From: Verrucomicrobiia bacterium
Lineage (GTDB): Bacteria; Verrucomicrobiota; Verrucomicrobiia; Limisphaerales; UBA11358
DNA: 32,959 nucleotides
Direction of reading: 5' to 3'
Assembly (NCBI GenBank): GCA_035279985.1
Contig: DATEGR010000062.1
Span: forward strand, 1-32,959
Below the pieces are notes generated by a model. The model was not told the origin of the DNA. It ran no database searches and was given only the letters and a program-made list of their open reading frames with translations. Position 1 is the stretch's first letter. Each line of letters starts with the position of its first letter. A program made the translations under genes and the position numbers. This document shows positions 7,961-11,278 of this stretch, piece after piece.

Positions 7961-8057
7961 CGCGGCAGCGTCCTGGAGTGCGGCAGCCTTCTGCCGCTTT
8001 TCGCACATCGGCGCGCTCGAAAGCGGCCGAAGGCGGCCGAAGTCCAAAACCTCGCGG
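7961..8057. repeat. Head-to-head pair of REP-like hairpin repeats in the only sizeable intergenic gap of the operon
   Basis: Copy A (7961..8003, reverse orientation) reads cgaaaaGCGGCAGaaggCTGCCGCactccaggacgctgccgcg. Copy B (8018..8057, forward) reads cgaaaGCGGCCGaaggCGGCCGaagtccaaaacctcgcgg. They share about 31/40 positions. Each carries a 6-7 bp GC stem with a 4-nt loop (7980..7997 and 8024..8039). The six-frame translations give ..KRQKAAALQDAAA.. and ..ASWSAAAFCRF.., which I recognise as the typical shadow translation of a dispersed repeat family in Verrucomicrobiota/Planctomycetota genomes. Confidence 0.6.
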
Positions 8058-8101: not shown

Positions 8102-11100
8102 TCAGTCCTTTACCAGCCAAACCACCCCCGGCGGCACATTGATGGTTCTTCCCGCGGGAATTGTTTCCGACCGGGTTGCCACTTGACCCGTTCGTGGGTC
8201 CACCACGTGCAGCTGGAACGAGCCGGATTCCGCCGACAAATCCAGTTCCGATTTGTCTGATGAATAAACGAGGTACTGCCGGCCCCGTTCGCGCAGAACC
8301 CAGCGGTTCTTTCCCGCAGCCTCCGGCCAGGGCTGCATTTGCGGAATGGCGTCAAGTAATTGTGAGTCGGTTGTTTCTGGCAAATCAGGCATCGAACCGC
8401 CGGCACACAAGAACGCCCATGAACCCTTCAAATTGGCATCCTCGCCCGAGGCGATGACGGCTTTGCCGGGAAATTTATGCCGATATTCCGCCGCCATGGC
8501 GGCCAAATCCATGTCAGTGGGTGTCCCGCCATGCCATTTCCGCTCAAACTGGCGCGGTGAAAGATTCTGTCCGCCTTTCGGCGCGAACAACCCCTTGTCC
8601 GTCCGCCACCAGTAGCGGAAACAAATCACGTCCACCACCGCGCGGCGCTGCGGGTCGGCGAGAATGGCGTCCTGCACGTCCTTGGGTGCGGCAAGCGCGA
8701 TGATGGGCTTCGTAGCCGCCGATGTGAGGAGGCGATGTCCCGCACGAGTCGGACCATCCGCCTCCTCACGTCGGCGGCTACAACCGTGGTCGCGTTCCCA
8801 ATCGGCGATGGTGTCGAGCCAGAATTGCTCGAATGCCAGCGGCCCGGTGAATTCCGCGCTGGTGAACTGGATGACATTCGGCTCGTTTGTAAAATTATTC
8901 AGATTTTGCCGGATGAAATTCTCGTGCAACTTGCGCCGGACCGGGTCGCTTACGTCATAAAACTGTTCGGCCATGAAGATGCGTTTGTCGCCGGCGAACG
9001 GCGGTGGCTCCGGAAATCCGGTGTGATTGATGTTGTTGGCCGAGCGCCACGGGCAATCCACCCAATGCGCCCCGGCTTCGAGGATGTTGTGCTGAAAATA
9101 ATTTTCATTGAACAACACCAGCCCGCGCTCGTCACAAATGTCGGCGAATTGCTTTAACCGCGACCAATACCACGGGTTGAATTTTGTGAGATCATATTTG
9201 CTCAGGCCGTCCCACGCCGTGCCCTGGCCGCTGCGCGCAAACGGCTGCTCATAAAATGGCCCCCAGACATCGCCGTTCTCGCGCCGGACGCGTTCGTGGT
9301 CCTCGCGCCGGCGGTCATACCAGAGGCCATAGTGGTGATCGAGCGCGACTTGATTTTTGGAAACCATGCCGTCGGCAACCGCGCTCAAATCATCGGTGAA
9401 GCCCGGCCCGATGCGCCCGGGTGCGAACCTGGTCAGGTTGATCCCGTAATTTTTTGCCTCGCTGGGGCGCATGTTGCCGCGCCACCAATTGATGCTCGCC
9501 GTGTTGCCGGCGAGCAATTTGCCGTTGCACACCAGCCAGCCGTTGGTGAGGGAAAGAACAGCGGACGGAGGGCGGAAGACGGAGGGCGGGGTTGGAAGTT
9601 CGTCAACCGGCTTGGCGGTTCCGGGTTCTGCCGGAATCGGATTCCGCGTTTCGGCGGCGGCGATGAAATTGGAGAGTTGCGGCGCAGGTTTGCGGGCCGC
9701 CGCGATCAATTCCGCCGCCTGCTGCTCGCTCGGGTTGCTGTATTCCTCCATCGAACGCGGCATCAATTTAATTTTTGCGGCCGCCGCTGCGCCCAGCCGG
9801 TCGGCGACCTGCGCGACAAACAGGCTTTCCGGCCGGACGTGGTCATTCGAGCTGCGCCAGATGCCATTGCCTTCAAATTCTCCCCACGAGCCGAACGCCC
9901 AGTTTTGGGCTGTCGGCGGACTTTCGCAGGAAATTTTTGACGCGTCACATTGCCACAGGACGGAGTTCGCCGCCGACCAGCCCGCGCCCTCACCGGCGTC
10001 GCCGCGATTCATCAGACTCAAACCGTTGCCGTCTATTCGGACGTTATCGAAAAGGGTGCCGCTCGCCCAGCTTGCCAGCGCGCCGCTGTCAGCTGTCGGC
10101 AAAGTATCCTCACATTGCACGAAGGCATTCGGTCCGGCGGCACAAAATCCGGCAGCGAAATCATGGCGTCCATGCTCGGCCCAACAGCGCAGAAACAACG
10201 TCTGCTGGCCCATGGTGAAAAAAGTGTCCCGCCGCCAGCCGCCCATTTCCGACACCGGCGCCAGCGACAGACAATCCTCAACCGTCACCCATTGGCAGCT
10301 GTCATAAATCGCCACCGCCGACCCGGCAAAATGCACGAAGGTGACCTGCCGGACCCAGGTGTTCTCCGCGTTTTCCATTGTGATGGCGAACCAGGAATGA
10401 TTTTCGTCCCTGGGATTCCCCGCATCGTAAGCGGATTCCAGCCGGAGATTTTCCACGCCGATACGGCTGATGCGTCCCGGCCAGGAATAGGTTTCCACCC
10501 GCCCGCCGCCGAATTTTGATTCGATGGCGGTTGTAATCGGCGCATCGACCGTCACCCGGTTGCCGTCAACTTTCTGGAGGACGCGGTCCCAGGTAAGGTC
10601 ATAACTGCCGGCATGCCAGACCAGCCGCCAGTCGCCGATTCCGCCCCCAAATTCCGTCATGCCCAACGCGCCAATCCACGGCCGGGTGCTGGGACGGATG
10701 ACGAAGACGGTGTCGCCGACTTTCAATCCGGTCGCGTCCCGGACGTGAAAACTCGTTGCGCCGACGGGAACGTGATCGTCCGCAATCTCCCAGTTTGAAT
10801 TCGGGATGCGTGACAAGTCGTTTTGGCCCGCGACGCGAATCAAAGTCCGCCGGTCCATTCCGGTAGCGACCAGCAGTGTTCCATTTTCGCCCATGCCTTG
10901 CCCCCGAAGCACGACGCCGGAATTGGTGATCTGCAGGCCGCCCGAAACTTCATGCCGGCCCTTGAGCAACAACACTGCGCCGCGGATCCCGTCCGGGCCC
11001 ATCGGCAACCCGGCGACGTAATCAATCGCTTTTTGAATTCGCGCCGTTTCATCACCGGCGACCGGCGGGACGATGACCCGGGCCGGCGCATCGGGAATGT

Positions 11101-11278
11101 CTTTGTCGCCGCCGGCGTAACCGCAGGTGGAAAAATCGGGAACACGATTGCCGTGTTCGTCGGGGTAATAAACCAGATGGCCGTCGGGGCCGATGGAAAT
11201 GATGGGCGACAATTTTTCCGGCGCGGCGCCGGCGGTAAGCACGAATCCGAAGGTGAACAGCAGGAGAAATGTTTTCAC
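8102..11278 (-). CDS. Secreted composite glycosidase-like protein: N-terminal right-handed beta-helix (pectate-lyase-superfamily-like) + C-terminal TIM-barrel-like domain (possibly DUF6298-like)
   Basis: 1058-aa ORF with a GTG start at 11278 that overlaps the upstream stop (GTGA). Signal peptide MKTFLLLFTFGFVLTAGAAPE. 'ETARIQKAIDYVAG..GAVLLLKGRHEVSGGLQITNSGVVLRGQG' is the usual N-terminal cap of Pectate_lyase_3/tailspike-like beta-helices. In the C-terminal half, 'ICDERGLVLFNENYFQHN' (an NE motif) and 'NVIQFTSAEFTG' resemble clan GH-A acid/base and nucleophile strands. Residues 833-856 are encoded by an inserted palindrome (listed as a separate feature). Confidence 0.8.
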   Translation of the reverse strand: MKTFLLLFTFGFVLTAGAAPEKLSPIISIGPDGHLVYYPDEHGNRVPDFSTCGYAGGDKDIPDAPARVIVPPVAGDETARIQKAIDYVAGLPMGPDGIRGAVLLLKGRHEVSGGLQITNSGVVLRGQGMGENGTLLVATGMDRRTLIRVAGQNDLSRIPNSNWEIADDHVPVGATSFHVRDATGLKVGDTVFVIRPSTRPWIGALGMTEFGGGIGDWRLVWHAGSYDLTWDRVLQKVDGNRVTVDAPITTAIESKFGGGRVETYSWPGRISRIGVENLRLESAYDAGNPRDENHSWFAITMENAENTWVRQVTFVHFAGSAVAIYDSCQWVTVEDCLSLAPVSEMGGWRRDTFFTMGQQTLFLRCWAEHGRHDFAAGFCAAGPNAFVQCEDTLPTADSGALASWASGTLFDNVRIDGNGLSLMNRGDAGEGAGWSAANSVLWQCDASKISCESPPTAQNWAFGSWGEFEGNGIWRSSNDHVRPESLFVAQVADRLGAAAAAKIKLMPRSMEEYSNPSEQQAAELIAAARKPAPQLSNFIAAAETRNPIPAEPGTAKPVDELPTPPSVFRPPSAVLSLTNGWLVCNGKLLAGNTASINWWRGNMRPSEAKNYGINLTRFAPGRIGPGFTDDLSAVADGMVSKNQVALDHHYGLWYDRRREDHERVRRENGDVWGPFYEQPFARSGQGTAWDGLSKYDLTKFNPWYWSRLKQFADICDERGLVLFNENYFQHNILEAGAHWVDCPWRSANNINHTGFPEPPPFAGDKRIFMAEQFYDVSDPVRRKLHENFIRQNLNNFTNEPNVIQFTSAEFTGPLAFEQFWLDTIADWERDHGCSRRREEADGPTRAGHRLLTSAATKPIIALAAPKDVQDAILADPQRRAVVDVICFRYWWRTDKGLFAPKGGQNLSPRQFERKWHGGTPTDMDLAAMAAEYRHKFPGKAVIASGEDANLKGSWAFLCAGGSMPDLPETTDSQLLDAIPQMQPWPEAAGKNRWVLRERGRQYLVYSSDKSELDLSAESGSFQLHVVDPRTGQVATRSETIPAGRTINVPPGVVWLVKD
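8711..8782. repeat. 72-bp palindromic (REP/MITE-like) element lying in frame inside the CDS 8102..11278
   Basis: GTAGCCGCCGATGTGAGGAGGCG (8712..8734) and CGCCTCCTCACGTCGGCGGCTAC (8759..8781) form a 23-bp stem with a single T/G mismatch around a 24-nt loop. The element is exactly 24 codons (CSRRREEADGPTRAGHRLLTSAAT on the minus strand). Because it is a palindrome, the plus strand also reads RLLTSAAT (ORF 8735..9157). Confidence 0.85.

Follow-up and report, generated by a model that had tools for sequence, protein, structure and literature searches.

How a long, nearly perfect palindrome comes to lie in frame within an otherwise intact-looking gene is the question raised by a 32,959-nucleotide contig of a Verrucomicrobiia bacterium (DATEGR010000062.1, assembly GCA_035279985.1), the whole of which is referred to here as the window. 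The palindrome interrupts a minus-strand gene for a protein of the DUF6298 family. It is a REPIN, a hairpin-forming inverted doublet of repetitive extragenic palindromes (REPs), by its unit anatomy, its doublet arrangement, and its membership in a widespread family. We consider it very probable that this family, of Pedosphaerales/Limisphaerales type, is mobilized by a REP-associated tyrosine transposase (RAYT) and that the copy in the DUF6298 gene is a tolerated, decaying passenger. In the feature list and throughout, loci from other genomes are cited by L numbers and sequencing runs by X numbers, X1 being the source sample.

8102 to 11278, minus strand: host gene for the 1058-amino-acid (aa) DUF6298 protein, putatively secreted (signal-peptide-like N terminus); intact
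8711 to 8782, minus strand: the 24 codons containing the element, residues 833 to 856, CSRRREEADGPTRAGHRLLTSAAT; net gain of 23 codons relative to orthologues with an empty site
8757 to 8781, minus strand: REP unit 1, forming the 5′ arm on the mRNA strand; its sequence, GTAGCCGCCGACGTGAGGAGGCGGA, matches the 25-nt family consensus throughout
8737 to 8756, no strand assigned: doublet spacer of 20 nt, common to locus L122 and unrelated to the spacer of locus L270
8712 to 8736, plus strand (reads GTAG): REP unit 2, the 3′ arm on the mRNA, GTAGCCGCCGATGTGAGGAGGCGAT, three substitutions from the consensus

The first-pass annotation of this DNA described a 72-bp palindrome with a 23-bp stem, a 24-nt loop, and one T/G mismatch, lying wholly within the 1058-aa open reading frame (ORF). 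The palindrome is real and its placement is exact, the codons of residues 833 to 856 mapping to 8711 to 8782, but the palindrome proper, from GTAG to CTAC, is 70 nt, and 72 nt is the length of the 24 codons that it touches. Its arms (8712 to 8734 and 8759 to 8781) are 23 nt long, complementary at 22 of 23 positions (96%), and 24 nt apart, as described; the mismatch, however, is T/G on the plus strand only and a nonwobble C/A on the mRNA, which corresponds to the minus strand. The host gene is the only long ORF that crosses the palindrome. The arm and its partner are the sole matches within the 33-kb window, where 100 dinucleotide-preserving shuffles gave none, and the predicted RNA fold of the region (−69.4 kcal/mol, z = −6.4) was equaled by none of 200 shuffles. 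No direct repeat flanks the element (flanks GGTT and GAAG). A search of the whole window with Rfam at the gathering threshold returned no family for the palindrome, and a permissive search of 8600 to 8900 returned just subthreshold matches to eukaryotic microRNA hairpins, which are generic hairpin similarity. An independent Logan contig of run X1 contains the same sequence, and the insert is also carried by a run X3 relative of about 91% identity and by the metagenome-assembled genome (MAG) at L122.

The element is a tail-to-tail doublet of a 25-nt unit, GTAG-CCGCC-GACGTGAGGA-GGCGG-A, in which the GTAG tag is followed by a 5-bp stem (CCGCC/GGCGG) enclosing the 10-nt loop GACGTGAGGA; GTAG-tagged REPs and REPINs have this build, as Di Nocera et al. 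(2013; PMC3733652) and Bertels and Rainey (2011; PMC3116915) have set out. The first reading had pointed to a dispersed palindromic repeat of Verrucomicrobiota, and a scan of a species-representative genome collection bore this out: the exact 23-mer arm was present in at least 120 loci, nearly all in Verrucomicrobiota MAGs. Copies share a common layout of GTAGCCGCCGACGTGAGGAGGCGGA, a variable spacer of about 15 to 35 nt, and TCCGCCTCCTCACGTCGGCGGCTAC. The 120 loci contained 100 tail-to-tail doublets (modal length, 70 to 71 nt), in both intergenic and coding positions, together with 46 units without a partner and a small number of tandem arrays. Across 243 collected units, 21 positions of the 25-nt core were 93 to 99% conserved (GTAG tag, 96 to 99%), while positions 12, 15, and 17 and the last base were 78 to 86% conserved; the first three of these mark a second REP subtype, GAGGTAACGA. 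GTAG was preceded by C in 57% of units and by T in 22%, and a compensatory A-T replaced pair 5/22 of the stem in 7 units. Doublet spacers vary freely between copies. In the window, one of the three substitutions in REP unit 2 disrupts that unit's own stem. We sought the REP sequence in the Opitutus terrae peptide and family lists of PMC3733652, in Rfam, and in the searchable literature and did not find it, and we regard it as undescribed.

Single MAGs contribute several loci, with seven from SMAG_U2734 among the first 80 matches listed, and an unbiased 193-kb sample of 46 genomes contained seven REP units. The 33-kb contig of the window organism holds one family copy, and a search of the X1 contigs with the element alone recovered only the source contig. 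Tandem REPIN arrays (four copies with a period of 82 to 99 nt) and arrays of single units with short spacers were also seen (L015:1599-1901 and L110:4093-4190). The contigs of L017, L020, L021, L072, and L111 begin or end within or beside the repeat, which suggests that it breaks short-read assemblies. Some MAGs labeled Bifidobacterium, Klebsiella, or Akkermansia muciniphila (L002, L007, L012, L057, L073, and others) carry the Verrucomicrobiota-type repeat, RAYT, and DUF6298 genes, and their labels look unreliable.

Comparison with orthologues supports reading the 24-residue segment as a lineage-specific, frame-preserving insertion, as had been proposed. Most of the 120 homologue clusters encode proteins of about 1035 aa that read ...WERETG-HK-PLIALAA... 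without a gap. Between the motifs FW(L/I)(D/E)(T/V) and K(D/N)(V/A)QD, the window protein has 52 residues and the orthologues have 29, as read from the DNA of 80 orthologous loci; this empty state spans Verrucomicrobiota, Planctomycetota, and Bacteroidota, and distant orthologues thus lack the 24 residues. The DUF6298 profile match is split at the same place, residues 472 to 832 corresponding to profile positions 1 to 361 and the match resuming at position 362 beyond the insert. A relative in run X2 with an empty site has 37 nt in place of 106 nt, a difference of 69 nt. The frame is therefore kept, but the net gain is 23 codons (69 nt) and not the 24 first supposed; once the 70-nt palindrome is deleted from the window, 8 nt remain, against 9 in empty sites. 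The contigs of the source sample contained no empty-site allele, though contigs drop rare variants.

The window copy is old and decaying. It shares its spacer with the copy at L122, from which it differs at 7 of 72 nt, and at L123 and in a contig of run X2, 42 bp have been lost between short repeats in the arms, leaving GCS-RLLTPAAAK. A further family copy in the orthologous gene at L270 has arms of perfect consensus and a spacer unrelated to that of the window.

A candidate for the mobilizing enzyme emerged when RAYT sequences from Additional file 5 of PMC3733652 were searched against the family loci. L037 contains a gene of 189 aa whose product shares 39% identity with RAYT RB11751 of Rhodopirellula baltica, and the gene has REPINs of this family on both sides, at distances of about 70 nt (upstream) and about 200 nt (downstream). 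A scan with the L037 protein gave 68 loci. Among the 18 homologues at least 66% identical to it, 17 are flanked by the same REP, most of them on both sides and within about 150 nt; one of them is the RAYT at L203, which belongs to SMAG_U6377, the MAG with the DUF6298 gene nearest to that of the window. More distant RAYT clades are flanked by other GTAG REPs, some of which differ throughout, while two retain the loop with both sides of the stem changed (GTAG-GAGAC-GACGTGAGGA-GTCTC and GTAG-CAGCC-GACGTGAGGA-GGCTG). The proteins have an invariant HUH motif, MPDHxH, and an invariant Tyr followed by an invariant NP; their profile matched only Escherichia coli TnpA-REP (4ER8; E = 3e-8) in the PDB and only REP_Tyr_transpos (NF047646; E = 1e-17) in NCBIfam. 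From these associations, it is a well-founded inference that the RAYT, as an HUH/Y1 enzyme, mobilizes this REP. Presence/absence differences between orthologues show only that insertions happened.

Other observations concern the RAYT loci themselves. At L215 to L263, each clade has its own flanking GTAG or GTGG REP, and two RAYT clades can occur within single MAGs (CAVQGB01, DATLVR01, and JANOHH01, for example). At L208:1201-1743 (MFD03044.bin.1.155), the matched frame of a RAYT homologue flanked by the REP of this family is interrupted by two stop codons; the gene may be a pseudogene, or the stops may reflect a sequencing error.

Residence within genes is common in this family. For 46 of 100 doublets, the frame stays open for at least 60 codons ahead of the element and 40 beyond it, and under a stricter requirement of at least 150 codons on either side, 22 of the 99 classified doublets, about a fifth, are in frame. 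All 10 ORFs tested are real genes, encoding isoleucyl-, leucyl-, and valyl-tRNA synthetases (IleRS, LeuRS, and ValRS), HrpB, an ABC ATPase, UbiD, a GH38 mannosidase, a NuoF-type protein, a short-chain dehydrogenase/reductase, and a major facilitator superfamily (MFS) transporter. Direct reading of the element finds stops in only one of its six frames. The frames in use start with SRRREEA or VAADVRRR and end with RLLTSAAT, PPPHVGGY, or SASSRRRL; the translations LLTSAAT and VGGY, given in the first-pass annotation as typical of such repeats, thus correspond to two open frames of this one. No frame-breaking intragenic copies, the signature of a pseudogene or of translational bypass, were found among the family loci, and because no gene was found interrupted out of frame, selection appears to remove all but the frame-preserving hits. 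Three candidate ORF pairs for frame-breaking copies, at L019 and L050, were rejected, both loci being ordinary intergenic positions. Intragenic hairpins might be expected to be weaker if selection acted against structure in the mRNA, but intragenic and intergenic copies did not differ in hairpin strength (p = 0.25 and 0.94).

Each of the IleRS, ValRS, and LeuRS genes carries one REPIN. Two family REPINs within a single gene were also seen; the loci behind these observations on genes with one or two copies are L057 (3462-3532 and 5515-5608), L096 (3049-3125 and 5191-5267), L007, L011, and L119. The same proteins also carry inserts of other families, such as ...PLPSGRGEG... and ...ARAVPARSA....

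What kind of protein accommodates the window copy is suggested by structure prediction. Pfam assigns the host protein to DUF6298 only, and a sequence search of the PDB gave zero matches. The predicted fold comprises an N-terminal beta-helix followed by a C-terminal barrel resembling those of glycoside hydrolase (GH) families GH5, GH140, and GH30 and a beta-sandwich; Foldseek paired the N-terminal part of the model with tailspike-type beta-helices and the C-terminal part with GH5, GH140, and GH30 barrels (TM score, 0.4 to 0.5 per target). The neighbors of the gene on the window contig are GH65-like, DUF3826, and MFS genes, and an apiosidase-like gene is among the neighbors at orthologous loci. 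The barrel fold and this setting, which resembles that of carbohydrate-active enzymes (CAZymes), make the original description of the gene as a glycosidase gene plausible, although the Pfam assignment goes no further than DUF6298. Every column invariant among 49 orthologues is retained in the window protein, and apart from the insert, the gene appears intact.

An AlphaFold model built from 49 sequences has a mean pLDDT of 64.5 but is good in the region of the insert: helix 814-830 and strand 859-863 have pLDDT values of 85 to 93 and residues 836 to 855 have values below 50. The model puts the insert in a disordered helix-to-strand surface loop of the GH5/GH140-like barrel. Helix-to-strand loops of such barrels face away from the catalytic side, and the insert loop would accordingly lie opposite the catalytic face if the predicted fold is right.

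This loop is a hot spot. About 10 of the 120 orthologue clusters have inserts in it, drawn from at least six repeat families:

L270: this REP family, at the same junction as in the window, with an unrelated spacer
L271: this REP family, at another junction, a 62-nt element
Other palindromes: a GTGG-tagged palindrome, GTAG-TGGGACAGGC, and the untagged GGGAGCGCCGGC
Other inserts: a repeat translated as ...PSDTL.P.GGEGRGEG, a further GTAG palindrome, from a Pirellulales genome, and a 7-bp (GGAAATC)n microsatellite

Loop-insert loci, at the equivalent of window residues 830 to 858, include L135, L156, L160, L175, and L271 to L274. Insert peptides of the form GTGVSPV...RDACAT match translations listed for the GTAG-19 repeats of O. 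terrae. Two secondary sites of REP-like insertion occur in orthologues, at about residue 259 and in the interdomain linker at 561 to 573. Because insertion points vary by a few codons, we read the hot spot as a sign of tolerance rather than of targeting.

These results fit a history in which the family would be mobilized as single-stranded DNA by its cognate RAYT and one REPIN would have inserted into the DUF6298 gene of an ancestor common to the window organism and the MAG SMAG_U6377. Survival would have required that the insert add a whole number of codons, present a stop-free frame, and fall in a helix-strand loop able to tolerate extra residues. The copy would now be decaying, one arm having three substitutions and a relative having lost 42 bp from the center. 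The 24 residues are presumably translated and neutral, and the insert is most likely a passenger that a permissive loop tolerates. Several observations weigh against parts of this account. REPs are extragenic by definition, and the window copy and 22 of 99 doublets lie within genes, outside that definition, as is also documented for many O. terrae copies (PMC3733652). The RAYT scored 64 bits in NCBIfam, where the curated cutoff is 80, and a Pfam search with the candidate returned nothing at E 0.01. The 33-kb window contains neither a RAYT nor a second copy of the element, so the RAYT link for the window organism comes from its closest relative, and transposition of the family's REPINs is something that we infer from sequences and never saw. 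Finally, the copy at L270 (L270:4050-4205, compared with window positions 8690 to 8800) occupies the identical junction, GACCACGGTT joined to GTAG, yet in a neighbor-joining tree L270 belongs to another clade, and in nearer relatives of the window the site is empty and flanked by other codons. A simple account of one old neutral insertion fails to explain this match, and a single-insertion history was rejected as a misfit to the tree. The shared junction could reflect independent hits, replacement of one element by another, or a recombined patch of sequence. Window and L270 combine the same junction with unrelated spacers and different clades. The loop may be more than permissive, and REPINs may return to occupied or structurally marked sites, successive elements reusing one junction; this we regard as unlikely. 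If it were true, RAYT systems would, in a semitargeted and recurrent manner, vary the lengths of loops in Verrucomicrobiota proteins, both secreted enzymes and housekeeping proteins.

The tolerated passenger has to be set against a sequence kept by selection, either for an mRNA hairpin (as an RNase III site or through ribosome pausing or control of decay) or for a function that an Arg/Glu/Ala-rich loop would bring to the enzyme. The great stability of the hairpin lends itself to such a co-option, as do the retention of the insert through about 13% nucleotide divergence, the synonymous nature of 5 of the 7 changes between window and L122, and the recurrence of inserts in the same loop in about 10 of 120 clusters. 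Yet most orthologues, including closer ones, do without it, spacers and even repeat families change between lineages, and one lineage has deleted 42 bp of the element. Intragenic arms, moreover, are neither weaker nor stronger than intergenic ones, and the element also sits in unrelated genes such as those for tRNA synthetases. We consider co-option improbable. An origin as a deletion derivative of an insertion sequence (IS), comparable to a MITE (a miniature transposable element with inverted repeats) or a Rickettsia palindromic element (RPE) and moved by a DDE transposase that recognizes terminal inverted repeats and duplicates the target site, strikes us as very improbable. The insert is short, palindromic, dispersed, and in frame, like RPEs, and Rfam has no family for it, but no direct repeat flanks it, each arm is a GTAG stem-loop in its own right that also occurs singly (46 unpaired units), and arms flank RAYT genes and not DDE transposases. 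That the 24 residues are ancestral and were lost elsewhere, or that the palindrome is an assembly artifact, has a negligible probability; the presence of a single copy in the window is all that speaks for it, against which stand the 29-residue empty state in three phyla, the recovery of the insert in independent assemblies and runs, and the fit of its DNA to a repeat consensus from at least 120 other loci.

Current knowledge of REPIN mechanism is unaffected by the finding. To the small number of REP/RAYT families known outside Proteobacteria it contributes one that is widespread and undescribed, and the orthologue series shows that such elements often enter coding sequence, where only in-frame copies were seen and where each copy whose position a model or alignment could give falls in a loop or linker. 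These copies mark out where a CAZyme-like protein and essential enzymes naturally tolerate insertions. The practical effects include domain hits of hidden Markov models that are split, spurious low-complexity peptides in protein databases, and broken metagenome assemblies.

A different hairpin repeat had been noted in the intergenic gap next to the DUF6298 gene, and an imperfect inverted pair, TGGAGTGCGGCAGCCTTCTGCCGCTTT ... AAAGCGGCCGAAGGCGGCCGAAGTCCA, is indeed present at 7974 to 8046, after the gene; no Rfam family matched it. The motif TGGAGTGCGG-N10-CCGCTTT occurs in at least 120 loci, mostly as inverted pairs whose inner stem covaries, in Acidobacteriota, Verrucomicrobiota, Planctomycetota, Kiritimatiellota, Victivallis, Armatimonadota, Anaerolineales, and Nitrospinota.

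Several known classes of element resemble the window REPIN to differing degrees. MITEs have IS-derived terminal inverted repeats and target-site duplications. The window element is likewise a small, nonautonomous repeat forming a transcript hairpin, as are members of the Correia/NEMIS, ERIC, and RUP families, but neither IS-derived terminal inverted repeats nor target-site duplications were seen for it. The yeast mitochondrial "byps" of Lang and colleagues (2014) reportedly break the reading frame and are skipped by the ribosome. They too are G+C-rich mobile hairpins within coding sequence; here, in contrast, all 22 high-confidence intragenic copies keep the frame, so no translational bypass is needed. 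RPEs are said, after Ogata and colleagues in 2000, to be palindromic repeats lying in frame in functional Rickettsia genes and adding surface peptide segments to their products. The likeness to RPEs drawn by the first-pass annotation holds as an analogy of outcome, since both are in-frame palindromes adding surface peptide, but not as relatedness: RPE-1 is longer (about 100 to 150 bp against 70 nt) and has no sequence relation to this element, and its host is an obligate intracellular alphaproteobacterium, whereas ours is a GTAG-tagged REP doublet with a cognate RAYT in Verrucomicrobiota. RPE-4 and RPE-6 have been classed as CGTC-tagged REPs (PMC3733652).

The closest counterparts are the GTAG REP/REPIN and RAYT systems (Nunvar et al. 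2010; Bertels and Rainey 2011; Di Nocera et al. 2013; TnpA-REP 4ER8), which share with this family the 25-nt unit with its 5′ GTAG tag, the short G+C stem-loop, the inverted doublets with variable spacers, copies dispersed over many loci, the REP-flanked RAYT, and RAYT clades that each have their own REP. The family departs from them in a core that is nearly unchanged across many species and in the intragenic location of about a fifth of its doublets. Among the genomes studied by Di Nocera et al. (2013; PMC3733652), O. terrae had the most intragenic GTAG REPs, mostly doublets or grouped repeats that insert 20 to 30 residues, several of them in glycoside hydrolases. The GTAG-17, -18, and -19 doublets of that organism match ours in phylum, in adding 20 to 30 in-frame residues to real genes that include glycoside hydrolases, and in the occurrence of different families at similar positions of paralogues (ASPIC/UnbV proteins); the REP sequence is another one, and the family described here belongs to another order of Verrucomicrobiota. 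The same study reported different REPs at about one site in recB of two Xanthomonas species, its only instance of repeated hits (PMC3733652), whereas the DUF6298 orthologue series displays both the empty ancestral state and repeated hits at a single loop.

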